Shown here in pieces: positions 267-50,834 of a stretch of DNA of 64,000 nt; positions within the stretch are counted from its first letter, which is position 1, and each line of letters begins with the position of its first letter. The translations under genes were made by a program, and so were the position numbers. The stretch lies in IMG/VR virus record IMGVR_UViG_2687453508_000006; one strand, written 5' to 3'. The notes below the pieces were generated by a model, which was given only the letters and a program-made list of their open reading frames with translations, was not told the DNA's origin and made no database searches. This DNA comes from a virus (Duplodnaviria; Heunggongvirae; Uroviricota; Caudoviricetes).

Positions 267-330
267 ATTCACCCCACAAAAAAGCCCGCCTGAACCGGCG
301 GGCTGTCATAACACTGTGTTACCTGGCTAA

Positions 331-930
331 TCAGAACTTATAACCGACACCCACGATGAAACCGTCAGTGCGCCAGTCGCCACTGCCGGAGCCTTCATAA
401 GCAATATCAATGGCCACGGATTCGGTCGGGTTAAACTGCACGCCAGCCCCCCACGCCAGAGACGTGTTGCTGTGGCGACCGTCATCACTTCCGGTCAGCA
501 CATCGTGCGTTTTCCCCTTGTTGTCAGTTACGCGAAGATAATCCCCGGAGAAAGTCGACACACGGCTGTAAGCCACACCCGCCATCGCATACGCGCTGAA
601 CCATTCATTCACGCGCACAGACGGCCCCGCCATTACGCTGAACCAGCGGTTACGCACGGAATCTTCATGCCAGCGGGTATCGCTGTAACGGGTAAGCTGG
701 CGATTCTTGTCTCCTGCATAGCTGAATGACGTCACCAGCCCCAGCGTGTCCGTAAATTCATAACGGTATTTCACGTTAATCCCGTTAAGATTATCGCTAC
801 CGGGAGCGCTCGTCCGGGCATGAAGATACCCCGCGCTCAGCGTGGCCTGCTGCTCAGACGCCCATGCAGGCGCGCCGGATACGGCCAGACAGATGGCTGC
901 GGACAAAATGGCGGCATAAAGTTTACGCAT
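331..930 (-). CDS. lom: Lom/Ail-family outer membrane beta-barrel protein
   Basis: 199-aa ORF with signal peptide [24 protein letters not shown] and C-terminal ...IVGVGYKF; lambda lom position between J and stf. Confidence 0.85.
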
Positions 931-951
931 AATTACCTCTCGCTTTTCTGC

Positions 952-978
952 AATAAAAAAGGCGCCATTTCTGGCGCC
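952..978 (-). terminator. rho-independent terminator between J and lom
   Basis: Hairpin GGCGCCAGAAATGGCGCC followed by T-run on minus strand (plus-strand A-run 952-960). Confidence 0.45.
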
Positions 979-997
979 CGTATATGGGTTATAAAAT

Positions 998-3900
998 TCA
1001 GCTGATACTGATGCCTGCGGTGGCTTTCTTCATCACCACAACCAGCAAATCGCTGATACTTGCTGTGGGATACCAGTTATTCACCAGCCATGCTGACACC
1101 GAAAACTCCAGCGTCATGTGACCGTGACCGGCAGGCATATCAATAACGCCACTGTAAATCAGCGTATTATCCAGCGCGGTACGGTTATAAATTTCAGCAC
1201 CGTTTTTCCGCACTATCAGACGGCATGAGGAGTAAATATCAGTATGCTCTCTCTCTCATGTTTAGCGCCGCTGAATGCCACCGCCGGAATAACAATCTGC
1301 CGGTCAAACGGCTGATCGTCATAAACCCTGACGGTAATGGTCCCTGATGGCCACCGTTCCGGTGCACGGGAGTCCCGGGGGAAAGCTTTGCCCACTGTTT
1401 TAACGAGATCGCCTTCAATCTGGTTCGCGGACAGTTTTCCCAGAACCCGACAGTTCTCGTTAATCGTGACGTTGTTGAGCGTCCCGGAGTTCGCATTCAC
1501 ACTGCCACTGATATCCGCATTTTTAGCGGTCAGCTTTCCGTCTGATGTCAGGGAAAATGCCGGAGGATTGCCGCCACTGGTAATGGTGGGAGCCGTCAGA
1601 TATTTCAGGAACACTTCATTCATAAATATCTGATCGCCCTGACCAACAAACATCGGCTTTGTGTTGCCATTCGCAGGATTAATCATCGCAATCCTGTCTG
1701 CCGCCAGCAGCACCTGACTCTGCATTCCTGCTGGCGTATTCTCAATACCGGCACCGATACCCGCAATATAAAGGCGTCCGTCCTGCATCTGCTGCAGTTT
1801 CACGGCCCACATGCTGTTCAGGTTATTATTTGTATCAACCTGAACTTTCTGTATCTGCTGGATTGCCGCACTCTGATTTTCCAGTTTTTTATTGACGGTC
1901 TGCGTGATTTCATTGCTGACATTCGTAATGGACGTCCTGATTTCAGCCAGGTCCGGCGCAAGCTGACCGTTATCAATCTGCGTCCACAGCTCCTGGGCCA
2001 GATGTGTTTTCCCGATTTCTCCTTTGAAAAAATCCAGGTAACCTTCCGCATCATCGCTCGCCCGACCGACAGCCTCCACGAATGCCGATTTGCCAACAGT
2101 ATTCACACTGCGGATATAAAAATAATAATCATGGCCCGGTTTGATATTGATACTGGCAGCTATCCAGTACAGCGCCGAGCCAAGATAGCGGGCTGCGGTT
2201 TCAACCTGCCTGATATCCGCAATCCGCTTTTCCGAGAACCAGAACTCAAACTGTACCGTCGGGTCATAAACGGCAAGATGCGGCGTGGCGGTTATCTGAA
2301 AATAGCCCGGCGTCAGCTCAATCCGCGACGGTGCTGCCGGTGCGGCAATCCGGAAGGTGGTGGTGGCAGGTTCACCCTGCTGGCCATAGCTGTTTATCGC
2401 CCGCACCGTCAGGGTGTATTCCCCGAGCGGCAGGCCGCTGAAACGGTGCTCCGTGTCTGCGGTGATGGCGGTGGTCACCAGTCTGGCATCCGTTCCCTTA
2501 CCACTGGTCAGGCGCAGACTGAAGCGCACGCCCTTCACCACCCGCGGCGTGTCCCATTTAGCCTGCGCCAGATACTGGCCGTCAGCTGCACTCACCTCCA
2601 CCGTCAGGTGCTGTACTGCCGGTGGGATGACGCTGTTCAGGGAACCTGACTGCGGCTCAAAGCGGGCACCGTTATCCACGATGGCTTCTTTTTCCGGTAC
2701 GTGCTGCACCGCCGTGATGGCAAAGGTGCCGTCCGTGTTTTCCCGGACGGAGACACAGCGGAACAGGCGACGGCACAGTGACGGCAGGGAGAGTCCCCAC
2801 ACCCCGTATGTCTCCACACCATCAGGCAGGGTACTGACCTGTATCCGGTCCGGCGCGGGGTGTGCGGTGATGTCCACACTCACCGGCTTACCGCTGCCGT
2901 TAATCAGGTTCACCGTGGCGGCACCGGTCTCCGGCAGTGTCACCTCACGGTCCAGCGTCAGGGTGCGGCTGGCGGCATCGATGGACAGGACACGTCCGCC
3001 GGTCATGGTCCCGGCATAGTCGTTATCACAGATTTCAATAATGTCACCGGGTGTGTGACGCAGCCCCTGTGACCCAAGCGTGAAATCCACCGTCTGCGTT
3101 TCCAGCAGTCCGGTCTTTATCACCCACAGCCCGGCACGGTGGGCCTGACCGCGACTGGTGCAGCCGAACGCATCCATCTTCAGCAGGTTGCGTCCGTAGC
3201 GCAGTATGGCTTCCGGGTCTTCCACCAGTTCCGTGGAGGTCTGCCAGCCGTTCTGCGGGTCGGTGTAATTCACCTCCACCGCCGTGTGGCGGTCCTTCAG
3301 GGCGCTGAAGCTGTAGCGAAACCCCACGCCGTTATCATCCACCACCACATCACTGCTGGTGTAGGCCACACCACATCTGACGGACGGTCCTGCACAAACG
3401 TCAGCGTCTGCCCGTTCCATACCGGCATACAGCGCATCGCCGAGCAGAAATCACTGAGAACGTCCCACGCCTTACGCTGTTGTGACAGGTACGCATTGAA
3501 AGTCATCCGCGGCTCTGTGCCCCCGAAACCATCCGGGACCGTCTGGTCGCAGTACTGCGCAATGGCATACAGCGCCCACTTGTCCACATCCGCCGCCCCC
3601 AGGCGTTTTCCCATTCCGTAGCGCGGGTGGGTCAGCATGTCCCACAGGCACCAGGCAGGGTTGTTGCTGTATGCCGGTTTCAGGCTGCCGTCCCAGATGC
3701 CGCTGTACGTGCGTTTTTCCGGGTCATAGTTTGACGGTACCTGGATGATGCGACCGCGGATATGGTAGTTCACCGTCATCTGCTGACCGCCAAACTGCTC
3801 CGCATCCACCTGCAGCCCCACAATCGCCGTGTTCGGGTAGCACTGTTTCACATCGATGATTTCGGTGTATGACGACCAGAGCGTCTTATTCTGCAGCTGG

Positions 3901-7185: not shown

Positions 7186-10100
7186 TCAGCATTCCTCCGT
7201 CACGTCGCATGGACAGCATCACCGCCTGCACCCGCTGGTCAATCAGCTGCACAAGACTGCCTGCCGCCTCCGGCCCTATCTGTCCGTTAGCCCCGTCATT
7301 CTGAATGGCAATGTGGTAGACCGGGGAATACACCAGACCAGCACTGCCGTTCATACTGCCCACGGCGCGTACGCCCAGCGAGCCATCCGCCGCCCGGGTC
7401 AGGGGCATAATAGCTTCAGGTCCGGCTTCCCCCATCAGCCCGGCCCCTTTTGCAAACGCAAAGTACGTGGGCGTGTCCACAATGCTGTTGCTGTACGCGC
7501 TCAGGTTTGCCGAGGTATACACGCCGCCTTTTGCATTGGCCACCGCTCCGCCCAGCCAGTCACCAATGCTGCCGAGAAATCCTCCCGCACCGGACATACC
7601 GTTTGCCGCCGTCTTAATTCCGTTGACAATCGCGGCATTCATAAGAACTTTTGATATTTCCTGCAGTACGGATGAGGCCCAGCTGCGCCATTCCACTTTA
7701 TTTCCGTTCAGCATCTCCGTGATGTTATTCACCATCCCTGAGATACCCTCCGTCGCCAGCTGTGCTGCCTGTGAGGCGTAATCGGACGCATTATCCACCC
7801 AGTTACTGAATCCCTCCTGCAGCCCTTTCTGCCAGTCCGCACGCTGCACATCCGATTCGGCATAAAAGACTGCCTGGTCCTTAAGGCGTTCGCTCAGATA
7901 CTGCGCGTTCTGTGCCAGCGCCTGTCTGTAAAAATCCTCACTGATATCCCCGGTCTGATACTGAGACTGAAGGTCCGCATCCTTCTGGCGGAAGCTGTCG
8001 CGGATCTGCTGCAACTCCCGCATGCGTTCCCTGGCTCGTTCCCCCTGCCCGTACCCCAGCAGTTCAGATTCATTTGATGCACGCGCAGCCACATTATCAT
8101 TCTTCAGGGTCTCTTCCCGGTACCGCAACTGCTCCCGGATTTTTTGCTGGTCAATCAGGGCCGCATTGCGCAGCAGTTCCTGCTTCTGTATCTCCGACAG
8201 GGTTTTCAGTTCACCCAGCGCTGTCTGGTACTTCAGCTTCGCCAGCTCCGTGTTCTGACCGGCCAGTGCCAGTTGCTCTTTCTGCTGCTTCAGCAGCCGG
8301 GAAAAACTGTCTTCCGCTTTTTCCGTCTCTGATTTTCCACCCCGGGATTTGGGTTTATTCACCTCGTTATTGCGCCAGGCTTCCAGGGCATTACTGATAT
8401 AACGTTGTCTCGCCTCCTGATACGGATCCCCCACAAAACCGAGGTCATCCGCCGCATACCCCAGTCGGACGCGCTCTTTTTCTTCCCCTTTCAGTCTGGA
8501 CAGGGCCAGCTCACGCTCTGTTTTTGTCAGGGCACTCTGCTGTTTATCATCCAGAGTGGCCTGTGGCAGCCGTAACGGCACATTCACCAGTCCCTGCCGC
8601 TGCTGAAGCAGTTCATTCCCCAGCCCCAGCAGACGGTTGAATTCCGTATACTGACCGTTCATAACCAGCATGGACTGGTACACCTTATTCTGCTCTGCCG
8701 CCTGCTGACGAATTAACGCCACACGACGGTCTTCCAGCCCGGCAAGCACATCCTGAATGGACTGCGCTTTTTCCTGCATCTGTGCCAGACGGGACTGCTC
8801 AACGGCAAGCTGCTCTGTTGCCTGAGCAAGCCCTTCCGTTACGGTCTTCACCGATGTCAGATGGTTTATCATGAATCCGTCACCGGTCGTCCAGCCCGGG
8901 TTCGCCAGAACATACTGATATCCTGCGATTTTTTCCTGCAGGGATTTCACCCGACTGGCCTGTTCATCAATCAGCCGGTTCTGCTCTGTCAGCGCCGCCC
9001 GTGTTCGTCCTTCATTATCTGAGGCTTCAGGCAAAGACATTGACGGCGTTTTATGCGCGATTTCATCTATCGTCAGTGCATACTGGCGCGCAGACTCCCT
9101 GGCCTGCTCCTGATTCTGGTACAGCGTGTACCATGCTGCAGCCCCCAGCATCACCAGTCCGGGTACGCCACCAACCAGCCCCAGCGCACCGCTCATCAGA
9201 CGTGAGCCCACCGCCGTTGTACTGTTCAGCGCATTCTGGGCGGCGCTTCTGGCAGCAATATTTCTGTTCAGGCGTTCCTGTGTGGCCGCCAGACGGGCCT
9301 CTGCAGCAATCTGCATCTCCGTCCCGCGGGCTGCCGCCACGGCCTGCTGAGCACGGTACACGGCTGCCCTTGCCCGCGCCGTGGCAATCTGCGTTCCCCT
9401 GAACTGTGCTTCCGCCAGTGCAACTTCATTACGTGCAGCCGTCACAAGTCCTGCCGTGGCAGACATCGCTCCGGAGGCCATATTGCCAAAGTACCGGGCA
9501 ACCCCGACGGCAACCAGCGCGCCCACGGCTGTTGCCACATTATCAATCTGTCCGGCAACACCGTTCAGCATGCCGGAGAGCGTTTTTGTCACCCCGCTGG
9601 CCTCATTCGCACCGCCCACCCAGGCCATAAAGGCGTTTTCCACCTTTGTGATACTACTGGAAACCGTTTCCGGCATGGCCGCATATTCATCACGTAATAT
9701 CCCCAGCTGGCTGATTAACGCGGGGACCACTTTATCCGCTGTCAGTTTTCCGTCATCCGCCATTGCCTTCAGATCTTTACGGGCCACGCCCATACCCGCA
9801 GCCAGTGCACGTACGATCCGGTCACCACTTTCATTGACCGAATTAAACTCCTCACCACGCAATACACCCTGCGCCAGCGCCTGACTGAACTGGGTGATCA
9901 CCGAGCCCGCCTCTGCCGTACTGGCACCGGAGATTTTCAGCCCTGTCGAAATGGCCTCCGTCACCTTCAGCACATCATCAGCACTGTAACCATATTCACG
10001 CATCGAGGCAGCCGAACGGGCAAACAGGGCCGCATTATCCGAAAATGCGGTGCCTGTCCGCTGGCTGATATCCATCAGCACTTTCTGTGATGACGCAAAT

Positions 10101-10420
10101 TCATCGGATGACTGTGATGCCTGTTTCAGACGGGCATTCACGGAGCTCCATTCATCCGCCAGCGAAATCAGGTGTCCGGTGGCAAAGGCACCGGCAAACG
10201 CACCGGTCATTCCGACAGCCGAAGCGCGGATTTCCGTCAACTGGCTGTGCAGCTCAGCCAGAGCCCGGCGCTGCTCCCTGGCTGCCGCAGCAGCCTGACG
10301 TCCGCCATTCTGCAGGGTCCGGTAATATTCACTGCCCATACGGGACGCCCGCTGGATCTCCGACTGGAATGACTGTGAATTTGCCGAAATTTTGATAATC
10401 AGTTCACGTAACGTCGCCAT
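7178..10420 (-). CDS. H: tail tape measure protein H
   Basis: 1080-aa intact ORF, coiled-coil-rich, C-terminal NDGANGQIGPEAA motif as in lambda gpH; RBS GGAGAAAGG. Confidence 0.9.
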   Translation of the reverse strand: MATLRELIIKISANSQSFQSEIQRASRMGSEYYRTLQNGGRQAAAAAREQRRALAELHSQLTEIRASAVGMTGAFAGAFATGHLISLADEWSSVNARLKQASQSSDEFASSQKVLMDISQRTGTAFSDNAALFARSAASMREYGYSADDVLKVTEAISTGLKISGASTAEAGSVITQFSQALAQGVLRGEEFNSVNESGDRIVRALAAGMGVARKDLKAMADDGKLTADKVVPALISQLGILRDEYAAMPETVSSSITKVENAFMAWVGGANEASGVTKTLSGMLNGVAGQIDNVATAVGALVAVGVARYFGNMASGAMSATAGLVTAARNEVALAEAQFRGTQIATARARAAVYRAQQAVAAARGTEMQIAAEARLAATQERLNRNIAARSAAQNALNSTTAVGSRLMSGALGLVGGVPGLVMLGAAAWYTLYQNQEQARESARQYALTIDEIAHKTPSMSLPEASDNEGRTRAALTEQNRLIDEQASRVKSLQEKIAGYQYVLANPGWTTGDGFMINHLTSVKTVTEGLAQATEQLAVEQSRLAQMQEKAQSIQDVLAGLEDRRVALIRQQAAEQNKVYQSMLVMNGQYTEFNRLLGLGNELLQQRQGLVNVPLRLPQATLDDKQQSALTKTERELALSRLKGEEKERVRLGYAADDLGFVGDPYQEARQRYISNALEAWRNNEVNKPKSRGGKSETEKAEDSFSRLLKQQKEQLALAGQNTELAKLKYQTALGELKTLSEIQKQELLRNAALIDQQKIREQLRYREETLKNDNVAARASNESELLGYGQGERARERMRELQQIRDSFRQKDADLQSQYQTGDISEDFYRQALAQNAQYLSERLKDQAVFYAESDVQRADWQKGLQEGFSNWVDNASDYASQAAQLATEGISGMVNNITEMLNGNKVEWRSWASSVLQEISKVLMNAAIVNGIKTAANGMSGAGGFLGSIGDWLGGAVANAKGGVYTSANLSAYSNSIVDTPTYFAFAKGAGLMGEAGPEAIMPLTRAADGSLGVRAVGSMNGSAGLVYSPVYHIAIQNDGANGQIGPEAAGSLVQLIDQRVQAVMLSMRRDGGMLSG

Positions 10421-10467
10421 TCACCTTTCTCCGGGCGTAAAAAAACCGCCTCAGCGGTTCTCATCAT

Positions 10468-11147
10468 TCATGACTGTGCTGCAAGGCTCAGCGCGTCTTC
10501 CAGCGCCGCAAACGGATCCACCTCCGGCTTATCCTCATCCTCGCCCCAGCAGAGCATGGCGTCCTTCAGTGCAACATTCATCCCCTGTGCCCCGAAAACC
10601 GCTTTCACGATCTGTGCATTACGGATATCCCCGCGCTCATCACCCAGCGGGGATATCCTGTCGAACTCCATCCACATCATCGCCTCGCTCGCACTCAGGC
10701 TGTGGCGCAGTTCGGATAAGGTGCGCCCCAGACGGAGCGCAAGTCGCATCAGAAAGCGAATTTCCGGGCGGGCTACTTTTTTCTGGCCGACTCTGCATCA
10801 GCGATCAGTTCCAGTGCCTGACGCAGCAACCGGGCATGTACCGGACCATAGACGGCCAGCACCTGCTCACGGTCGTCCGGAGTGAACACCCGCTGCAGGT
10901 CCGTATCACACAGGACATCGCAGAACAGCGTCACATCCGCTTCCAGGTTACGGCGGGTTTTCGCCACCACCGACAGGGTATCGTCATCCTCTCCATCACC
11001 ATTGAGCACTTCCTGCCACAGATACCAGGCCTCTGCCGAAGGCTCCCGCAGCACCACGCTGACATTACCCCATTCCGGCACCTTCACCGTTTTATGACGA
11101 AACCCTGACAGTCTGGCCAGCGCCAGCGTTTTCAGATCCTTTTTCAT
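10468..11147 (-). CDS. tail assembly chaperone G-T fusion made by programmed -1 ribosomal frameshift
   Basis: Heptamer A AAA AAG (minus strand, plus 10777-10783) at end of G; -1 frame reads KKVARPEIRFLMRLALR... into the T ORF 10468-10749. Confidence 0.6.
10773..11147 (-). CDS. G: tail assembly chaperone G
   Basis: Start MKKDLKTLALARLSGF at 11147; ends ...ESARKK with slippery A_AAA_AAG immediately before the stop. Confidence 0.75.
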   Translation of the reverse strand: MKKDLKTLALARLSGFRHKTVKVPEWGNVSVVLREPSAEAWYLWQEVLNGDGEDDDTLSVVAKTRRNLEADVTLFCDVLCDTDLQRVFTPDDREQVLAVYGPVHARLLRQALELIADAESARKK

Positions 11148-11161
11148 GATGACCCATCCCC

Positions 11162-11878
11162 TTATCCGGCGGCTGCGCTCACTGTCACGGTGCATTCAAC
11201 AGACGTCACACTCTGTGCTTTCTCTGCCGAATCGGTCACCACACAGGTATATTTCCCCGCATCAGCGGACTGCGCACCTGGCTTACTGAAGGTGTCTGTC
11301 GTCTGCCCGTCAACCGGCTGACCATCCTTCTTCCAGGCGTATTTATACGGCGGCGTTCCCCCGTTGGCACTGACTGACATTGTCAGCAGCGCACCGGTAT
11401 TCACGGTAAGTGTCTTATCCAGATTTTTCACAAACGCCAGCGGTACCACAAAGGACACCGGTTTGCCTTTCAGACGCAGTGAGAACGTTGCAGCCACCAC
11501 GCCGTTGGTACCGGATGACCAGGTGTGCTGGCGCACTTCCGCCAGGAACTTAAAGCCCTTACCGGACGGAAACAGCACCTTAAACGCATACAACGCGTCA
11601 TTGTCATAGGCATCACGCAGGGCGTTCTGGGCCTGATTCAGATAAAAATTGCCCGACATGGAAATCTCAGACGACGCCCCCAGACCATTGATGTTCTCCT
11701 GCTCTGTGGAGCAGAGCGTGGTCACATCAATATCCTGTTTCTGACCGGCGGTGAACTGGACTTCCTTGATGGTGCAGTCCAGGCGCAGATATTCCGCCTT
11801 ATCCATAGTTTCAGCAGTCGCCGGGGCAGATGAAATCATCACCTGCGTCAGCTGTGAGCGTTCATACAAAGCAGACAT
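11162..11878 (-). CDS. V: major tail protein V with C-terminal Ig-like domain
   Basis: Start MSALYERSQLTQ at 11878 with AGGAGG RBS; C-terminal Big_2-like segment ...GKYTCVVTDSAEKAQSVTSVECTVTV. Confidence 0.8.
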   Translation of the reverse strand: MSALYERSQLTQVMISSAPATAETMDKAEYLRLDCTIKEVQFTAGQKQDIDVTTLCSTEQENINGLGASSEISMSGNFYLNQAQNALRDAYDNDALYAFKVLFPSGKGFKFLAEVRQHTWSSGTNGVVAATFSLRLKGKPVSFVVPLAFVKNLDKTLTVNTGALLTMSVSANGGTPPYKYAWKKDGQPVDGQTTDTFSKPGAQSADAGKYTCVVTDSAEKAQSVTSVECTVTVSAAAG

Positions 11879-11946
11879 TCTGCCTCCTGATAATAAAAAA
11901 ACCCGCACGCGGCGGGGTATGGGTTTTGTAGAAAAAAAAGAAAAAG

Positions 11947-12291
11947 TCACACCGTGACCTGAAACTCCAGGGTTGCACGGTAACAGCGGTTTTCCGGAAT
12001 ATAGTCCTGCATTTCACTGACGGATCCCGGGGCCAGCAGCATTATGGCTTCACGGGCGTCCTGACGTATCTGACGCGCCTGCGTCACAGTCCCGGCATAA
12101 ACGTCTATCTGCACCGACACTGAGGACTCCGCCTGCCCGCCCATCACGTCCGCAGACACCGATGAAATCAGGCTGAAAACCACCCACGGAAGCGCCACCG
12201 ACGGCCTGCCATCCAGCAGGGGGACCACATACGGGTACACCTGCCCGCCGGCAAGATGCGCCAGATAAGGATACAAATCCGCCTCCGTCAT
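11947..12291 (-). CDS. putative tail terminator/completion protein (lambda U functional analogue)
   Basis: 114 aa, position between gp10-like protein and V. Confidence 0.45.
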   Translation of the reverse strand: MTEADLYPYLAHLAGGQVYPYVVPLLDGRPSVALPWVVFSLISSVSADVMGGQAESSVSVQIDVYAGTVTQARQIRQDAREAIMLLAPGSVSEMQDYIPENRCYRATLEFQVTV

Positions 12292-12734
12292 CGTCTCAGT
12301 ACCTCATCAATGGCCCGGTTCATCCGCGCAATCGCCACCTGAGCTGCCTGTTCACTGCGCACATCAAACGCCGGGCGCACAAACGGGTGCGGTGGCATAT
12401 TCACGGTCCCCATTTCCACAAACCGCCAGTAGAAAGCATTGCGCGGGTTATCCGCCTTCATGGTGTTATCGCTGTTACCGGTGTCCGGATTAACACCACG
12501 GATATGGACACCGGATTCCATCCCGCCATCGCGGGAGCGCCGGGAAAGGACCACCACATTGCGGCGCAGTTTTCCCCTGCGTACCGGTGCCCGTGACACC
12601 ACTTCTTCTTTCAGCACATTCGCACCCGCACGGGTTGCCTCACGCAGCACCCGGTTATTTTCCGCACCACTCAGAAGCTGCAAATCGCGGCTGATGTCCT
12701 CCAGCCCCGAAAAATCCAGCAGGGTTTCGATCAT
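12288..12734 (-). CDS. HK97 gp10-family tail-component protein
   Basis: 148 aa, MIETLLDFSGLEDISRDLQLL...; position in connector module. Confidence 0.65.
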   Translation of the reverse strand: MIETLLDFSGLEDISRDLQLLSGAENNRVLREATRAGANVLKEEVVSRAPVRRGKLRRNVVVLSRRSRDGGMESGVHIRGVNPDTGNSDNTMKADNPRNAFYWRFVEMGTVNMPPHPFVRPAFDVRSEQAAQVAIARMNRAIDEVLRR

Positions 12735-43476: not shown

Positions 43477-43628
43477 TATTCCTCCCGGCCGGGATAGTGT
43501 ATTAAATCAGATATGGAGTGGGCTGGCTGTAGTCCGGAAGCCTGAATGACACTCGGGGACTACAGCCCAAGAAATGAAAAAAGGCCACGCAGTTGCGCAG
43601 CCTGATAAACCCTGGTTAAAATCCACAC

Positions 43629-43690
43629 GATAACAACACAACAATATCAGTATCTCATGCTATTGCCCGAACCCATTCGGGCATTTTTTA
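43629..43690 (+). ncRNA. candidate small RNA convergent to the moron transcript
   Basis: Putative promoter TTGCGC(43593)-18 bp-TAAAAT(43617-43622); CA-rich ACAACACAACAA; plus-specific terminator GCCCGAA-ccca-TTCGGGC + ATTTTTTA (43665-43690); no plus-strand ORF. Confidence 0.25.
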
Positions 43691-43693
43691 CCC

Positions 43694-43719
43694 ATAAAAA
43701 AGCCCCTCCGGAGAGGGGC
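43694..43719 (-). terminator. rho-independent terminator ending the terB-moron transcript
   Basis: GC-rich hairpin GCCCCTC-cgga-GAGGGGC followed by T-run on minus strand. Confidence 0.5.
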
Positions 43720-43886
43720 ATGTTTGCATGCACATTCTTTTTCTTGCATGGTGCCGGGTGCCTCCCGGTGAATTCAGTATCAGCACCTGAATCCGCGATT
43801 ATCCCATATACCTGGTTGCTGATCGCCCCTCCGCACAGGGGGATTCACCATGCAGAAGTGTTTTTAATAAACAGCAAACAAAAAAA

Positions 43887-44054
43887 TCAAGCATTATGCA
43901 GGCTGTTTCTTTTTATCACCGGCCACAGCAATACCACAATGCCGCAGACCAGCACCCCATCCGCCAGCACCGACATGATTCTGCTGGTGAAATCCACCAT
44001 CACCACCAGAAACAGCAGGAGTGCAGCCACAGCCAGGCGCAGTTTTACCGTCAC
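43887..44054 (-). CDS. small two-TM membrane protein, possibly coupled to the TerB-like gene
   Basis: 55-codon ORF; GTG start overlaps terB-like stop (GTGA); hydrophobic LRLAVAALLLFLVVMV and VLADGVLVCGIVVLLWPVI. Confidence 0.3.
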   Translation of the reverse strand: MTVKLRLAVAALLLFLVVMVDFTSRIMSVLADGVLVCGIVVLLWPVIKRNSLHNA

Positions 44055-44482
44055 AGGTGATTCTCCAGACGAAGACCCAGAACACCGGCAATCTCTTCCA
44101 GCACCTTGCGCTCTTCCGGCTCAATTTCGCCGTCTGCCTCCGCAATGGCCACCGCCACATCCAGCACATCTTCCGCTTCACGCGTATCGTGTTTCACATC
44201 CTCAATCTCGCGTAACGCGGCACGACGACCAATTTTAAAATTGGTATCCAGCTGACCGATAATAGTTGCGCTAATCGCATTAATTTCCGAGGTAAACGCA
44301 GACAACGCAGGCTGATTACGTAAGACCTGTTCGATCTTCGCTTTCTCGGATGCCTCGCATTCACCATCTGCATAGGCCACCAGGTATGCAGCGTTAATCA
44401 CCGCCTGTGCCAGATCGCGTTTCTCAAACTTTTTAATTTCCGCTGCCGCTCTGCGGGTTTTCTTTTTGAAGATTCCAAACAT
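44051..44482 (-). CDS. TerB-like (tellurite-resistance TerB family) protein, moron at the stx-equivalent position
   Basis: Start MFGIFKKKTRRAAAEIKKFEKRDLAQAVINAAYLVAYADGECEASEKAKIEQVL at 44482; acidic C-terminal repeat; RBS AAAGGAAC. Confidence 0.5.
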   Translation of the reverse strand: MFGIFKKKTRRAAAEIKKFEKRDLAQAVINAAYLVAYADGECEASEKAKIEQVLRNQPALSAFTSEINAISATIIGQLDTNFKIGRRAALREIEDVKHDTREAEDVLDVAVAIAEADGEIEPEERKVLEEIAGVLGLRLENHL

Positions 44483-44612
44483 CGTGACGTTCCTTTGGGT
44501 GGGTGAGCCAACGCCCGGGAGCGATCTGCCCACAGAGAAAGTCACACTGACCACTCCGTAAGCTCACCCCCGAAAGGCTCTGTGGTTGATATGCGCCGGG
44601 CGTGGCGCAGAT

Positions 44613-44651: not shown

Positions 44652-44728
44652 TGGCGCGTTGTAGTGGAGTCGAACCACTGACCGATTGCTTAGAAGGCAA
44701 TTGCTCTGTCCGGCTGAGCTAACAACGC
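44652..44728 (-). tRNA. tRNA-Arg (anticodon UCU)
   Basis: 77-nt cloverleaf GCGTTGTTAGCTCAGCCGGACAGAGCAATTGCCTTCTAAGCAATCGGTCAGTGGTTCGACTCCACTACAACGCGCCA; anticodon loop CTTCTAA; encoded CCA. Confidence 0.85.
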
Positions 44729-44828: not shown

Positions 44829-44904
44829 TGGTGGCCCTTGCTGGATTTGAACCAGCGACCTGGCGATTATGAGTCGCTCGCTCTCACCACTGAGCTAAAG
44901 GGCC
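44829..44904 (-). tRNA. tRNA with CAU anticodon, ileX/ileZ-like (Ile2; Met not excluded)
   Basis: 76-nt GGCCCTTTAGCTCAGTGGTGAGAGCGAGCGACTCATAATCGCCAGGTCGCTGGTTCAAATCCAGCAAGGGCCACCA; anticodon loop CTCATAA. Confidence 0.85.
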
Positions 44905-46484: not shown

Positions 46485-46903
46485 TTCTCAATCTCTCGAT
46501 GGCGCAGTGCAGCAGATGCCAGTTGTTCAAGCTAGCACGCAAATTGTAAACCAGAATGCCAGGAAAAAACAAAACCCGCCGAAGCTGGTTGTGTGCGGTT
46601 GCGTTGAAGTCTCCTAGCCAAAGAGTAGCGGTGACCACTCCCCGCCGATAATCTTAGTTGTTTAATTTCGTAAGCTAACTAGGCTAAAAGCTCTCTGTTG
46701 TCTGCCTGTTGTACAATTAACAAAATGAACAACGAACTAGATATACCAACGCCAGAATGGTGCAACAAATCCCAAACAACACAGCAATGCAACAATAACA
46801 TATGTTATTTTCCTCTCACGGGATTCAGTCCTGAATTCTCATAAAGCTAATCTTTTTTTAAAAACATACTGTTAGATCACATGCACTTTCTTTCTTAACA
46901 TCG

Positions 46904-46931
46904 TTGACTTCGCATGCGAAGCGTTTAAAAT
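46904..46931 (+). promoter_or_regulatory. promoter of the GHKL operon with palindromic operator-like site in the spacer
   Basis: TTGACT(46904-46909)-16 bp-TAAAAT(46926-46931); perfect 14-bp palindrome CTTCGCATGCGAAG at 46908-46921; RBS AGAGAG before ATG 46984. Confidence 0.4.
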
Positions 46932-46983
46932 CAACAATTTGCACTTAAGGTATTTATTTTCCCAAACACATAGAGAGTAAATT

Positions 46984-48375
46984 ATGACTGAGAACACGAC
47001 TCCAACAGCAGACTTTAGTCCTAGTAAAAGATTTTTTGTAAGTATGCTAACTCGAGATATCGACTTAAACGATGCCATACTTGATCTGCTTGATAACTGC
47101 GTCGATGGGGCTTTACGTACAATAAAAGACACAAAAAAAACTTCAAAACCATATGAAGGATTTTATGCGAAACTTACGATTAATAAAGATGTCTTTATTA
47201 TAGAAGACAATTGCGGAGGTATCCCTAAAAGCTTCCGAGAATATGCTTTTAAAATGGGACGACCCCATCAAAAAGAAGAAGAAAATGAAGGCACCGTTGG
47301 CGTCTATGGTATTGGTATGAAAAGAGCCATTTTTAAAATGGGTAGAGATTGCTCAATACAATCGAATAATCCCGATGGCGCATTCACTGTAGATATAACA
47401 CCTGATTGGATCGATGGTGATGGTTGGAAAATACCGATGCACGAGAGTGACTATGATAACAAAAATCCAACAGGCACAACTATAGAGATAAAAAAACTCC
47501 ATTCTAATGTGGCACAAAAATTTAATGAGAGCACATATCTTACTGATCTCTTTTTACAGATAAAACACTCATTGTCATTTATTATTCAAAAAGGATTTAA
47601 AATAGAATTAAATGGAGTTGTTGTTGAACATAATCCGATTAACATCATAACTGATCATTCTAAAATAGAACCATACATATATAAAGCTAAAATAGACGAT
47701 GTTGATATCGATTTAGTTGTTGGCTTCTATAAAAATTTAGAAGATGACAATGATGATGTTTTAGAAAAAAGGAGTTCTGATGATGCTGGATGGACTGTCA
47801 TTTGCAATGACCGCGTTGTTCTATATTGTGATAAGACACATCTCACAGGTTGGGGCTTTGCTAATGTACCAAGGTTTCATACCCAATTTATAGCAATTTC
47901 TGGGGTTGTTCGCTTTACCAGTAAAAACCCAGAAAAATTACCAATAACAACAACGAAACGAGGTGTCGATCTTAGTTCTACATTGTACAATGATGTACGA
48001 AATAAAATGATTGAAGGGATGATGCATTTTATTCGATTCACCAATCAGTGGAAAGGTGAGCATCTTGAAGAAGGGAAAAAATTACTTAAGTCAGCTCAGT
48101 CACATGAAGCTCAATCTTTATTTGAAATTACCCCACAATCAACTCCAGAAGATAAAAAAAATAACTGGTCCAACCCTAATAGAAACAAAAATGAGTGGCG
48201 ATATACACCTAAGCTGCCTACCCCAGTAAAAAAAAGCTCTACTGTACGAATAATCTTCACCAGAGAGAAAGAAGATGTTAAAATTTTATCTAAATATTTC
48301 TTTGGACATGAAGATGCTAGCGCTTCTGATGTGGGGATGCAATGCTTTGATACGGTGATTGAAGAGGTGAAGTGA
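46984..48375 (+). CDS. GHKL/Bergerat-fold ATPase (MutL/MORC/histidine-kinase-like) with ~330-aa uncharacterised C-terminal region
   Basis: 463 aa; N-box LDLLDNCVDGA (res 33-42), G1 box IEDNCGGIP (73-81), G2 box GVYGIGMKRA (106-115); AT-rich codon usage. Confidence 0.8.
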   Translation: MTENTTPTADFSPSKRFFVSMLTRDIDLNDAILDLLDNCVDGALRTIKDTKKTSKPYEGFYAKLTINKDVFIIEDNCGGIPKSFREYAFKMGRPHQKEEENEGTVGVYGIGMKRAIFKMGRDCSIQSNNPDGAFTVDITPDWIDGDGWKIPMHESDYDNKNPTGTTIEIKKLHSNVAQKFNESTYLTDLFLQIKHSLSFIIQKGFKIELNGVVVEHNPINIITDHSKIEPYIYKAKIDDVDIDLVVGFYKNLEDDNDDVLEKRSSDDAGWTVICNDRVVLYCDKTHLTGWGFANVPRFHTQFIAISGVVRFTSKNPEKLPITTTKRGVDLSSTLYNDVRNKMIEGMMHFIRFTNQWKGEHLEEGKKLLKSAQSHEAQSLFEITPQSTPEDKKNNWSNPNRNKNEWRYTPKLPTPVKKSSTVRIIFTREKEDVKILSKYFFGHEDASASDVGMQCFDTVIEEVK

Positions 48376-49364
48376 TGTCTGGACAATACATTCCCTATCA
48401 CTTAAGGCATAATAAGTCTATTGATAGAGAGATTTTTCTCGAAAGCCTAAACCTCTTAAGCAAAAGACTAAATATTCAAGAATATACATATATAGGTTTT
48501 GGTGGTCCGATGCTTGAAGATTTTAGAATCATGCATAATCGTATCGCTCTTTCTGATATGATTTCTCTCGAAGAACAAGAGTCTACTCACATCAGACAAA
48601 AATATAATTTGCCTTATAATTGTATTGATTGTAAGCTAATATCAGCTCATGACTTTATTCTTGATTATAGTTTTTCTAAACCATCAATAACATGGTTAGA
48701 CTATGCCTCCCCGAAAAAAATACAAACGGATCTAGATGATATACACTTACTAAGTACTAAAGTAAGCTCTTTTGATATTTTGAAGGTCACCTTCCCCATA
48801 AATCCTAGTTCTTATTACCAACGTAGAGTTGGAGAAAGTTTAGATATTTTTAAAGAAGCTTTTATTAATTCATTAAAATCATTGCTTGGGAAAAAGTATC
48901 TTGATTTTAATCTTCAGATATCAAATGCAGATCTTTCAGATCGTAAGATTAAAGCTCTTTTAATACGAATTATTACAAACGCTTTTAGATCAGCAATAGA
49001 ACGTGGTCTTTCAGGACGTAAGGATAAGATTCAGTATTACCCATTATCCTTAAATCAATATAATGATGGCAGTCATACCATGTTGACAATATCAGGTTTT
49101 TTCTCCTCAGAACAAGAATATATAGAGTTATCTAAGGCATGCGACCTTTCTAACTGGCAATTTTATTCAACAAATTGGGAAGACGTGCAAGAAATAGCAA
49201 TACCAACACTAACAATTAAAGAAAAGATAAATTTAGATAGTAAACTGCCTGATAAAGAAGCATATCAGGCAGCCGCTGAAGAGTTCTCTTTAAACGAAAA
49301 TGAACGGGATAACTATTATAAATACTATAGGTTATACCCTAACTTCCAAAGAATTATGGTTTAA
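48375..49364 (+). CDS. uncharacterised partner protein, translationally coupled to the GHKL ATPase
   Basis: ATG overlaps upstream TGA (TGATG); 329-aa acidic protein MSGQYIPYHLRHNKSIDREIF...; no family recognised by eye. Confidence 0.65.
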   Translation: MSGQYIPYHLRHNKSIDREIFLESLNLLSKRLNIQEYTYIGFGGPMLEDFRIMHNRIALSDMISLEEQESTHIRQKYNLPYNCIDCKLISAHDFILDYSFSKPSITWLDYASPKKIQTDLDDIHLLSTKVSSFDILKVTFPINPSSYYQRRVGESLDIFKEAFINSLKSLLGKKYLDFNLQISNADLSDRKIKALLIRIITNAFRSAIERGLSGRKDKIQYYPLSLNQYNDGSHTMLTISGFFSSEQEYIELSKACDLSNWQFYSTNWEDVQEIAIPTLTIKEKINLDSKLPDKEAYQAAAEEFSLNENERDNYYKYYRLYPNFQRIMV

Positions 49365-50483
49365 ATATTCGGGCTGTACTCTTTTATTTAATAAATTGTA
49401 CAGCCCCTTTAATATATATTCAGCAACTATTGGTGACACGCTATTTCCTATTTGTCTGAAACTATGCCATTTAGTTACATGAAAGCGAAACCAATCAGGG
49501 AAGCCTTGTAATCTAGCAGCTTCTCTTGGTGTAATCACTCTTGGATGATAAGGGTGGATCGGCCTGACGGCTTGAAAGCTTCCTTTATCTCTAGCGGTTC
49601 CCGCCCTTAAAGTCGGGCAAAAACCATTTGGATCTAATCTTGTAGATCTTGAAATTTTATCAGTTTCCCCAAAAGATAAGGAAGCATAACGCTCTTGGAC
49701 GATTTTGCTATGTAATGTTCCGGTACATCCAGATATGATATTATTTTTTAACTTAGCGATCGATTCTGTATCACCAACATTCCGAGGGATCTGCCCCCAT
49801 AATTTTTCATAAAATCCCCCTTTTCGATCTTTTTTAATTGTTCGCCAACTCTCAGAGTCTGATTGCCAATTGGCATCGATAATATCTGGTAATCCATACA
49901 AAGCATCTTTTACAGTAACCGGATCAATCATTTTAGGCATAAATACTTCATCTGAAATATCAAGCTTCAATGATTTTTTTACACCGATAAAAAAATATCT
50001 AGTTCGAATAGTTGGAGCACCATAATCAGATGCTTTTACCTTGATGGGATCAAGAATATCATAATCACCGCTAACCAAATTAAATGCTTTATTTCTAATG
50101 CCAGAATATTTCTCTTGCATAATACCTGGAACATTTTCTGCCAAAAAGAATAATGGCTGTAATTCTGATACTAAACGGTAGAAATGCATGTAAAGCTGAT
50201 TCCTGCTATCATCAGGATTCCCCTTGCCTATTGAACTAAATCCTTGGCACGGAGGACCGCCAATAATACCATCTATGGGCATATCGTTTTTAAAAAAACC
50301 CTTAATTATTTCTGCATTTAGTAAAGAAACATCTTCTTGGACGTGCAAACTTCTTGGAAAATTAATTGCGTGAGTATTAATAGCATGTTGATCAATTTCA
50401 ACTGCCATTTTAACATCAAATCCAGCACGTGCAGCACCAAGACTTAGACCTCCAACGCCAGAAAACAAATCTATTACATTCAT
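49332..50483 (-). CDS. DNA (cytosine-5)-methyltransferase (Dcm family)
   Basis: 383 aa; motif I DLFSGVGG, motif IV GGPPCQGFS, motif VI ENV, motif X QIGNSV; convergent with and overlapping the partner gene 3' end by 33 bp. Confidence 0.9.
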   Translation of the reverse strand: MNVIDLFSGVGGLSLGAARAGFDVKMAVEIDQHAINTHAINFPRSLHVQEDVSLLNAEIIKGFFKNDMPIDGIIGGPPCQGFSSIGKGNPDDSRNQLYMHFYRLVSELQPLFFLAENVPGIMQEKYSGIRNKAFNLVSGDYDILDPIKVKASDYGAPTIRTRYFFIGVKKSLKLDISDEVFMPKMIDPVTVKDALYGLPDIIDANWQSDSESWRTIKKDRKGGFYEKLWGQIPRNVGDTESIAKLKNNIISGCTGTLHSKIVQERYASLSFGETDKISRSTRLDPNGFCPTLRAGTARDKGSFQAVRPIHPYHPRVITPREAARLQGFPDWFRFHVTKWHSFRQIGNSVSPIVAEYILKGLYNLLNKRVQPEYLNHNSLEVRV

Positions 50484-50744
50484 ATAGTTGCAACGTCTCT
50501 TATTAGTTTCTATGTATTATAACACAACTGTTCTTGATGTTTTAACCCCATAAGATAACCTCATAAAGGCTATCCCTTGAAAATACCGGATCGCATAAAT
50601 TTAATCTTTCAAAACTACTTGTCTATTAATCGAGCAATTTAAGGTTGTTTTAGTCATGTCGATACCGACATAGTTAACTAAACCCATTTCATCGTCCAAC
50701 AAATGGGGGTAATACACTTTGATTTATAGTCGGGTGGGTTTTTC

Positions 50745-50780
50745 TCTATCTGCCTTTGGTGTTCATGCCCAAGGCAGATA
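50745..50780. repeat. perfect 11-bp inverted repeat hairpin at the right edge of the low-GC island
   Basis: CTATCTGCCTT-(14 nt)-AAGGCAGATAG; no flanking U-run. Confidence 0.4.
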
Positions 50781-50834
50781 GCCTCAAGCACCCGCAGCAA
50801 TTCTACTTAACTATCCTTTTCCCGCAAATCGTTT

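Follow-up and report, generated by a model that had tools for sequence, protein, structure and literature searches.

The question raised by this locus is what a small foreign insert in a prophage is for. Within the window, by which is meant the whole stretch of 64,000 nucleotides that was analysed, an AT-rich insert of ~4.2 kb with a foreign composition is carried by a prophage of E. coli O157:H7. The original prediction was that it encodes a restriction-modification (R-M)-like module for methylation-based self/non-self discrimination, composed of a GHKL ATPase, a partner protein and a convergent C5 methylase. The low-GC block described with that proposal is borne out by a windowed GC profile, in which the value lies at 0.31-0.38 over about 46750-50750 against 0.47-0.57 (~0.50) on both sides. 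The composition break coincides with the homology breakpoints: relative to E. coli prophages without the island, homology on the left stops at window position 46533 (in a few, at 46607) and resumes on the right at 50736, and the single sharp-edged, GC-poor block between these points holds all three genes. The open reading frames are likewise placed as predicted, with a plus-strand pair joined by a TGATG overlap and a C5 methylase that converges on it and overlaps its 3' end. The features are as follows.

About 46534-50735: AT-rich island of three genes, delimited by the GC drop and the homology breakpoints
46534..46983, no strand: left arm, AT-rich and non-coding, with a candidate promoter-like site and GAGAG
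46984..48375, plus strand: MORC-like (paraMORC-type) GHKL ATPase, 463 aa; RefSeq WP_000138556.1, 'ATP-binding protein'
48375..49364, plus strand: Methyltransf_35 (PF20553) protein, 329 aa; RefSeq WP_000016656.1, 'O-methyltransferase'
49332..50483, minus strand: C5 cytosine DNA methyltransferase, 383 aa; RefSeq WP_001100703.1, PDB 3G7U
50484..50735, no strand: right arm, upstream of the C5 methylase, with a candidate promoter-like site

This island is a cassette of three genes gained by horizontal transfer. Its left arm carries a promoter-like site on the plus strand (TTGACT-16-TAAAAT, 46904-46931) and a GAGAG 8 nt 5' of the ATPase ATG, and its right arm a promoter-like site on the minus strand (TTAAAA-18-TG-TATAAT, 50545-50516); both sites are candidates only, since the overall count of the promoter scan was not above shuffled expectation.

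The first protein belongs to the GHKL (Bergerat-fold) superfamily. The three signatures originally picked out, LDLLDNCVDGA, IEDNCGGIP and GVYGIGMKRA, are all in the translation as N-box, G1-box and G2-box, and Pfam HATPase_c_3 confirms them (E 2.9e-9, 37.5 bits, cut-off 25). The remainder of the protein had been described as devoid of recognisable motifs; no nuclease domain was detected there, but it does hold one of the folds that was to be sought, an S5 domain. The GHKL and S5 transducer domains together occupy approximately residues 1-330, the C-terminal ~130 aa being helical, and the S5-fold transducer has the conserved basic residue of MORC/paraMORC modules. The residues of the ATP-binding motifs and the S5 lysine are invariant across 35 diverse ATPase sequences. 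The closest folds are those of MORC3, SMCHD1 and MORC2, which combine GHKL and S5 domains, rather than MutL. The MORC family proper is marked by a GhXhhpXXRhl signature in its S5 domain (PMC2292703); for the present protein, PDB profile matches to MORC3/MORC4 are marginal (E 0.04-0.14) and confined to the G1-G2 region, and hhalign against an approximate MutL sequence aligned only the G1 box. In MutL (E29), GyrB (E42) and MORC the general base is a Glu four residues before the Mg-binding Asn. Here, as judged from motif register only, that position is taken by Asp34, which is invariant in the family. Such a substitution could make the ATPase slow or switch-like, and it counts against the reading preferred below.

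The partner begins at either GTG 48372 or ATG 48375 (329-330 aa), of which RefSeq and the homologues favour the ATG. With this start the ATPase stop and the partner start share one base, and on the evidence of the sequence the partner is translationally coupled to the ATPase. Contrary to the initial view that it matches nothing known, it is covered at full length (residues 2-329) by Pfam PF20553, Methyltransf_35 (E 2e-89, 300.4 bits, cut-off 27), a family that also matches 77/77 of its diverse homologues. Its fold is that of a class I SAM-dependent methyltransferase, Rossmann-like and with extra helical elements, and 156 sequences, whose median identity is 31%, all retain motifs I (GFGG), II (E67) and IV (WLDY, D110). 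This conservation of the SAM motifs points to a live enzyme, and the partner is probably a catalytically active SAM-dependent methyltransferase that acts on a nucleic acid. The best Foldseek matches reach TM-scores of only 0.3-0.4 and are enzymes that act on small molecules or tRNA, and the structural neighbours comprise methyltransferases of RNA and of small molecules that modify N, C or O atoms, none of these types clearly prevailing; the 'O-methyltransferase' label in Pfam and RefSeq derives from the profile only.

The third protein is a Dcm-type C5 methyltransferase with the canonical motifs that had been listed for it, namely FSGVGG (I), GPPCQ (IV), ENV (VI) and GNSV (X). It is matched by Pfam PF00145 DNA_methylase (E 2.6e-61, 208 bits), TIGR00675 (157 bits) and PADLOC MTase_II (E 2e-98), and it is the same protein as the solved structure 3G7U (3g7u_A, E 1.3e-254, residues 1-367). 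Its gene converges on that of the partner with a 33-bp overlap at the 3' end.

If the cassette were an ordinary type II-like R-M system, the ATPase and its partner would supply the restriction function. Searches of Pfam, NCBIfam and PADLOC together with fold comparison detected no nuclease in either protein, be it by fold or by profile and whether of the PD-(D/E)xK, HNH or another type, and they gave no hit to a type II endonuclease of the PD-(D/E)xK, HNH, GIY-YIG or PLD kinds; with no nuclease detected, the conventional type II-like reading does not hold. The pair had not been recognised as any named defence system, in agreement with PADLOC-DB 2.0, which returned no family for the ATPase and none for the partner at E values up to 1. 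The searchable literature yielded neither a description of the pair nor a restriction or phage phenotype for it.

Whether the three genes belong together was addressed by a synteny survey of about 75 loci from many phyla, in which denominators refer to assessable loci. The ATPase adjoins the partner in 67/69, and a C5 methyltransferase lies at most 3 kb from the pair in 31/39 fully assessable loci. The convergent layout of the window, which had been proposed as R-M-like, is the commonest arrangement (25 loci). The trio recurs in Gammaproteobacteria, Alphaproteobacteria, Verrucomicrobia, Gemmatimonadetes, Bacteriovoracaceae and many metagenomic contigs, and no additional neighbour is conserved in more than four loci of the survey. 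Of the first 19 pair-linked C5 methylase relatives, 17 form one lineage in which even the TRD region can be aligned (27-57% identical). Enterobacterial prophages with the trio retain an identical 33-bp convergent overlap, and in E. coli the three genes stay together: 172 genomes have the methylase and 173 have the pair, at an identity of at least 99% throughout, and in the sole exception one deletion has removed the methylase along with most of the partner gene. These data contradict the idea that an orphan Dcm-type phage methylase merely lies beside an unrelated ATPase-partner moron, to which we assign a negligible chance. Solitary methylases are indeed frequent in lambdoid nin regions, and the opposite orientation of methylase and pair is what such a juxtaposition might produce, but the trio recurs in many lineages, most commonly with the convergent overlap, the three proteins have correlated pairwise distances (rho 0.19-0.38, Mantel p <=0.02) and one sharp-edged block encloses all three genes. 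The trio is a co-inherited functional unit rather than an accidental juxtaposition.

A gene for Vsr is found next to the methylase in 16 loci, implying that 5mC is indeed present in the resident DNA. Vsr is stimulated by MutL in E. coli, and SRAP adjoins the module in two loci, so that one might picture a MutL-like ATPase and its partner aiding Vsr-type T:G repair or the removal of other methyltransferase-made damage. A companion repair function of this sort is nevertheless improbable: the nearest folds to the ATPase are those of MORC3, SMCHD1 and MORC2 rather than MutL, most loci, the window included, have no vsr in the cassette, repair of this kind offers no function for a methyltransferase-fold partner, and relatives of the pair are also embedded beside the N6-adenine methylase DrmMI in DISARM operons.

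In 8/39 fully assessable loci (~20%), three cyanobacterial genomes among them, the pair has no DNA methylase nearby. It follows that the lack of a linked methylase does not necessarily make the pair lethal, provided that no gene at another site supplies the cognate enzyme. The same loci lend some weight to an abortive-infection or toxin module, in which the Methyltransf_35 protein would methylate RNA (rRNA, tRNA) or another cellular target and so arrest growth once the ATPase senses infection, with the methylase only loosely coupled. In addition, 12 loci have a second, paralogous GHKL gene whose C-terminal extension gives weak DUF4145 (HEPN-clan) matches, although these do not reach the gathering threshold and are seen in only 2/8 sequences, and it has been proposed that HEPN-paraMORC fusions guard R-M systems in the manner of PrrC (PMC3710099). 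However, fold similarity at TM-scores of 0.3-0.4 does not discriminate between substrate classes, and the strong linkage to C5 methylase and Vsr is not accounted for; we regard a toxin of this type as quite unlikely.

The wider genomic settings of the pair are compatible with mobile or defence-related cargo. At one locus it separates hsdS from hsdR in a type I R-M system, and at another it adjoins an hsdR; it also occurs at the accessory end of the Pseudomonas Pf filamentous phage PfAC20, beside a TrwC relaxase in one element and in Tn7-like elements. A census of flanking genes is dominated by mobile-element and miscellaneous genes over known defence genes, which counts against a defence reading. 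In a proteobacterial sub-lineage the pair lies inside class 1 DISARM operons, in the order drmD-drmMI-GHKL-MT35-drmA-drmB-drmC, directly after DrmMI. There are six such operons (Microvirga, Ferribacterium, Cupriavidus-like, Burkholderia, Bauldia and Massilia), often headed by a C5 methylase and Vsr; their pairs share at least 79% identity and hence represent roughly one evolutionary event.

These contexts also bear on whether the cassette could be dedicated to modification, its ATPase loading or stimulating the second methyltransferase to produce a double or unusual mark that would shield the DNA of prophage or host against other restriction systems or have an epigenetic role, with no restriction arm. 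Methylases on phages are often anti-restriction devices, and the cassette specifies two methyltransferase-fold proteins and no detected nuclease. The C5 methylase has the orientation of the prophage early and nin genes, as would suit this role, whereas the pair is transcribed against the direction of lytic transcription, unlike the prediction for protection of DNA in the lytic phase. The full DISARM system of Serratia raises the completeness of methylation (bioRxiv 10.1101/2021.12.28.474362), which speaks in favour of such a role. Against this, most copies lie on chromosomes or within defence operons and not in virulent phages, with the pair in 1/50,697 records of the phage collection; the pair is also found alone; and on this view there is no obvious reason why a MORC-type clamp ATPase should be kept at ~45% identity across phyla. 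A purely modifying cassette seems to us an unlikely explanation.

The reading that we prefer, with a probability of about one half, is a defence cassette of paraMORC type with methylation-linked self/non-self discrimination, in which the effector is a MORC-like clamp with an active methyltransferase instead of a nuclease. The C5 methyltransferase would mark resident DNA with 5mC, and the coupled ATPase-partner pair would be the effector arm. By analogy with MORC, MutL and GyrB, the ATPase may dimerise on ATP and clamp or scan DNA, positioning the Methyltransf_35 protein upon it; unmarked DNA would then be disabled non-nucleolytically, by entrapment or silencing and/or by inactivating methylation. 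We infer that the pair would form a complex, that it would distinguish DNA by its methylation, that a nucleic acid would be the methyltransferase substrate and that an anti-phage effect may follow, the prophage carrying the cassette as a defence or exclusion module. That neither protein of the pair has a detectable nuclease or other classical effector counts against this reading. What survives of the R-M-like proposal is a co-inherited, convergent, methylase-linked unit found in mobile and defence-related contexts.

The most specific form of this idea, that the pair is itself a non-nucleolytic immune effector in which a MORC-type clamp and a SAM-dependent methyltransferase silence, entrap or inactivate unmarked DNA, is doubtful. 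If true, it would amount to 'restriction by methylation or compaction', it would be a prokaryotic counterpart, possibly an antecedent, of eukaryotic MORC-dependent methylation-coupled silencing, and it would constitute a plug-in module recruitable by class 1 DISARM.

Among known systems, the closest parallel was drawn by Iyer, Abhiman and Aravind (2008; PMC2292703), who predicted MORC/paraMORC GHKL ATPases in R-M systems with Dcm, Vsr and SF-II helicases. The cassette shares with these an ATPase that combines GHKL and S5 domains and is extended at its C-terminus in a family-specific way, the sporadic and laterally mobile distribution, the two different GHKL paralogues at some loci (there MORC with paraMORC1) and the proximity of cytosine methylases and Vsr, SF-II helicases (SNF2 and DrmA) appearing here in the DISARM-embedded relatives. 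That work is purely computational; the accessible text does not name a methyltransferase-fold partner, and the nucleases stressed in its model are not present in this cassette. Type II R-M systems with a C5 methylase and Vsr are similarly compact, convergent or co-directional, mobile and frequently equipped with Vsr, but here there is no endonuclease fold and the place of the 'R' component is taken by an ATPase and a methyltransferase-fold protein.

Class 1 DISARM consists of drmD, drmMI, drmA, drmB and drmC with or without drmMII. Self is marked by methylation in this system, the way in which it restricts is not yet clear, and its nuclease DrmC is dispensable (bioRxiv 10.1101/2021.12.28.474362). 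Although relatives of the pair stand between drmMI and drmA in six operons, drmA, drmB (DUF1998/MZB), drmC and drmD are absent from the three-gene island of the window; conversely, the six-gene system of Serratia has no GHKL or Methyltransf_35 gene (bioRxiv 10.1101/2021.12.28.474362), and the DISARM models in PADLOC do not cover the pair. BREX may offer an analogy in its working, for it too has ATPases and methylation-based self/non-self discrimination with no known nuclease, and according to PMC11842806 its SAM-bound methyltransferase PglX/BrxX is needed for both defence and modification. There is no homology found between the two, the cassette having no PglZ, BrxC, BrxL or PglX; its methylase is a C5 enzyme, and its second methyltransferase-fold protein comes from another family. 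Finally, HEF_HK/Response_reg_2 paraMORC-like pairs downstream of C5 methylases (PMC8011034) have the same N-terminal HATPase_c_3 domain and the same link to a C5 methylase, and paraMORC3 is GHKL-Shedu, where experiments on VcSduA show an anti-phage effector under the control of an ATPase of paraMORC type (PMC12137116). In those systems the ATPase is accompanied by receiver-like domains or a DUF4263 nuclease, whereas here it is accompanied by Methyltransf_35.

The AT-rich block that carries the MORC-like ATPase, its Methyltransf_35 partner and the C5 methylase is a discrete ~4.2 kb insertion, because prophages that lack the island break off and resume at its edges: homology stops at 46533 (in a few prophages at 46607) and begins again at 50736. 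Windowed GC content is 0.31-0.38 over approximately 46750-50750, against about 0.5 in the flanks, in agreement with the original prediction of a low-GC block, and the open reading frames, the one-base TGATG coupling of the first two genes (hereafter the pair), the 33-bp convergent overlap with the methylase gene that completes the trio, and every motif then quoted were all found in the sequence or its translations. The features of the island and of the neighbouring prophage region are listed here in window coordinates.

43628-43689, plus strand, AgvB (anti-GcvB) prophage small RNA, Rfam match above threshold
43690-43882, minus strand, STnc100 prophage small RNA, Rfam match above threshold
44051-44554, minus strand, TerB-family gene
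44655-44728 and 44832-44904, minus strand, prophage tRNA genes (tRNA-Arg, tRNA-Ile in RefSeq)
46904-46931, candidate sigma-70 promoter upstream of the ATPase gene
46984-48375, plus strand, ATPase, 463 aa
48375-49364, plus strand, partner
49332-50483, minus strand, methylase
50545-50516, candidate sigma-70 promoter upstream of the methylase gene
50669-50793, minus strand, sok-antitoxin-like RNA at the island's right edge

The promoter candidates come from a scan in which total matches across the AT-rich island were not above chance. In the prophage, early-right transcripts would cross the methylase gene and continue antisense to the pair, which might promote modification and dampen the effector upon induction. 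The sok-like RNA reaches 50.2 bits where the gathering score is 59, and 65 bp of the match correspond to the annotated sokW of phage 933W; it is probably a remnant, since there is no Hok-like ORF nearby. The Q-like antiterminator region is followed downstream by the TerB-family gene and both tRNA genes.

A 4.15 kb region is 100% identical in EDL933 and in other O157:H7 and O111 chromosomes, where RefSeq names the three products 'ATP-binding protein', 'O-methyltransferase' and 'DNA cytosine methyltransferase'. The host element in EDL933 is a Rac-like lambdoid prophage with recET, kilR, sieB and ydaSTUV, and the island sits between replication/early genes on one side and DUF1367/DUF1364/DUF1133 'nin' genes on the other. 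Among 5426 complete E. coli genomes, 172 carry the methylase and 173 the pair, with identity never below 99%. The only broken trio among these 173 is that of the O157:H7 strain F6294 (NZ_CP038372, locus L042, 6392-6895), in which one deletion has taken out the methylase as well as two-thirds of the partner gene, from its distal end, but spared the ATPase. This single event is compatible with restriction-modification logic.

The ATPase matches HATPase_c_3 in Pfam and belongs to a family of more than 5430 clusters, a lower bound from a word-limited search, with about 45% identity across phyla. Invariant positions include the ATP motifs, the N-terminal strap and K325 of the S5 domain, while the helical C-terminal ~130 residues matched nothing. 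At residue 34 in the N-box, four positions ahead of the Mg-binding Asn, Asp is invariant and occupies the place of the catalytic Glu of MutL, GyrB and MORC; the assignment is read from motif register, because hhalign against E. coli MutL aligned the G1 box alone.

The partner had been described as resembling nothing known, a view that no longer holds: it matches PF20553 (Methyltransf_35, 'putative O-methyltransferase') from end to end (E 2e-89). Searches of PADLOC, NCBIfam and PDB sequences gave no match besides PF20553, and a 77-sequence partner profile found no PDB sequence and no second Pfam family. An exhaustive profile search recovered 2213 representative clusters at 50% identity, 1179 of them at E 1e-30 or better, and the best 150 of the 2213 are all stand-alone proteins of ~320-350 aa with zero fusions. 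In an alignment of 156 diverse sequences (median identity 31%), K15, R19, Y40, R75, W108, D110 and Y230 are invariant, R12, D50, E67, N79, T140, D232 and E284 are kept at 95% or more, and motifs I (GFGG), II (E67) and IV (WLDY) are retained. From this conservation we infer that the partner is an active enzyme, probably with a polyanionic substrate; the 'O-' of its name is a label taken from the profile. An abortive module in which the partner methylates RNA is an unlikely reading of the system.

The methylase has the canonical C5 motifs and a PF00145 match, and it is the protein of a structural-genomics crystal structure (PDB 3G7U, E 1e-254). Seventeen of the first 19 pair-linked methylases form one lineage in which the TRD region aligns (27-57% identity); at other loci the methylase comes from another C5 lineage (~24% identity).

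How firmly these genes belong together was judged on ~75 non-redundant loci, gathered by scanning species genomes, viral contigs and metagenomes and by context look-ups; alignment A1 seeded the metagenome scan, the broader alignment A4 being too diverse to serve. The ATPase lies directly upstream of the partner in 67 of the 69 assessable loci (in one of the two exceptions, two small ORFs intervene), and a C5 methylase lies within 3 kb of the pair in 31 of 39 fully assessable loci. The methylase is downstream and convergent, as in the window, at 25 loci, upstream on the same strand at 21 and downstream on the same strand at 8. At eight loci, three of them in cyanobacterial genomes, the pair lacks a neighbouring DNA methylase, and mirror-tree comparison of pairwise distances within the trio gave a significant yet weak correlation (rho 0.19-0.38). 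Chance adjacency of the three genes, which the synteny across loci contradicts, is very improbable and we reject it.

Vsr occurs near the pair at 16 loci, and a role as a companion to 5mC repair is a distinctly remote reading of the trio. A second, paralogous GHKL protein of 570-658 aa (570-626 aa in the linkage count) accompanies the trio at 12 loci (L005, 9067-10830; L007, 10246-11964; L009, 9105-10922; L109, 13743-15719; and eight more). It has the N-box, G-box and NDR/WH/LPWNTAKT motifs in common with the ATPase, by motif register likewise places Asp at the catalytic-Glu position, and bears a C-terminal extension with conserved R..E and VH motifs. Two of eight sequences gave matches to DUF4145, of the HEPN clan, all below threshold, which makes HEPN a tentative assignment at most. 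Neighbours were clustered in search of any further conserved gene, for example a nuclease: C5 methylase, Vsr and the second GHKL protein alone recur, all other clusters being confined to four loci or fewer, which argues that there is no hidden nuclease. With no nuclease of any kind, a classical type II restriction-modification system is rejected. The original prediction of a restriction-modification-like defence module thus stands as regards the methylase linkage and the trio as a unit, and falls as regards classical type II identity. A cassette that serves modification only is doubtful.

The genomic settings are varied. In enterobacterial prophages, both the 33-bp overlap and the low GC are retained. 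The trio occupies the accessory end (280-3711) of the 13.6 kb Pseudomonas filamentous phage PfAC20 (PP058144); another short cytosine methylase is encoded further on in this phage. Plasmids are a rare home (2 of 72,556 records). Tn7-like and integrase genes accompany the pair in some loci, AAA_15/AAA_21 ATPases stand beside it in others, and a TrwC relaxase adjoins it in one. At one locus the pair lies within a type I system, between hsdS and hsdR, and another adjoins hsdR. In an Opitutaceae locus (L018, 8957-10069), the gene directly 3' of the trio encodes both MrcB_N, an N-terminal DNA-binding domain like that of McrB, and NOV_C; a methyl-directed element may here stand next to one that methylates. 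Defence-island enrichment was not seen in the flank census, and because integrases, Tn7 genes and miscellaneous genes dominate it, we limit the claim to mobile cargo that is sometimes in defence loci.

The most telling of these loci are class 1 DISARM operons, in six records of which the pair lies between drmMI and drmA (L105, 7001-9415; L107, L108, L110, L111 and L112, each at 10001-12415). They come from Microvirga, Ferribacterium, a Cupriavidus-like contig, Burkholderia, Bauldia and Massilia, and often begin with a C5 methylase, in some cases accompanied by Vsr. Their ATPases form a large alpha-/beta-proteobacterial sub-lineage of at least 79% identity; one relative, from Asticcacaulis, is stand-alone. 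Being closely related, the six loci count as approximately one acquisition; they nonetheless link the pair with methylation-based defence of a proven kind. The pair is not among the six genes of the experimentally tested Serratia class 1 DISARM (bioRxiv 10.1101/2021.12.28.474362), so that the operons that include it constitute an eight- or nine-gene variant absent from that description. The pair could account for the extra genes of this widespread variant.

As the original prediction had it, the pair is no named defence system: PADLOC 2.0 models match neither protein. PHROGs gives both as function unknown, and no description of the pair was found in the openly accessible literature searched. 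With more than 5,000 ATPase and 2,200 partner clusters at 50% identity across bacterial phyla, the system has no name and no defence-database model, and the trio is carried by the reference EHEC strains EDL933 and O111, in which it may influence superinfection, Stx-phage traffic and 5mC patterns. Should it prove to be a defence system, it would add a mechanism that is linked to methylation, lacks a nuclease and has a MORC-like ATPase at its core, with a bearing on the role of prokaryotic MORC proteins and the origin of eukaryotic MORC silencing. 

Iyer, Abhiman, and Aravind (2008; PMC2292703) predicted computationally that MORC and paraMORC GHKL ATPases work alongside Dcm, Vsr and SF-II helicases in restriction-modification-like systems. 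The trio fits this class, and differs from it as set out there in its obligate methyltransferase-fold partner and its lack of a nuclease. We therefore favour, at a probability of roughly one half, a methylation-linked self/non-self cassette whose effector would be a MORC-like clamp acting with an active methyltransferase. Nearest to it in logic are BREX and DISARM, in which defence is not obviously reliant on a nuclease; for BREX, the methyltransferase is reported to be required for defence itself (PMC11842806).
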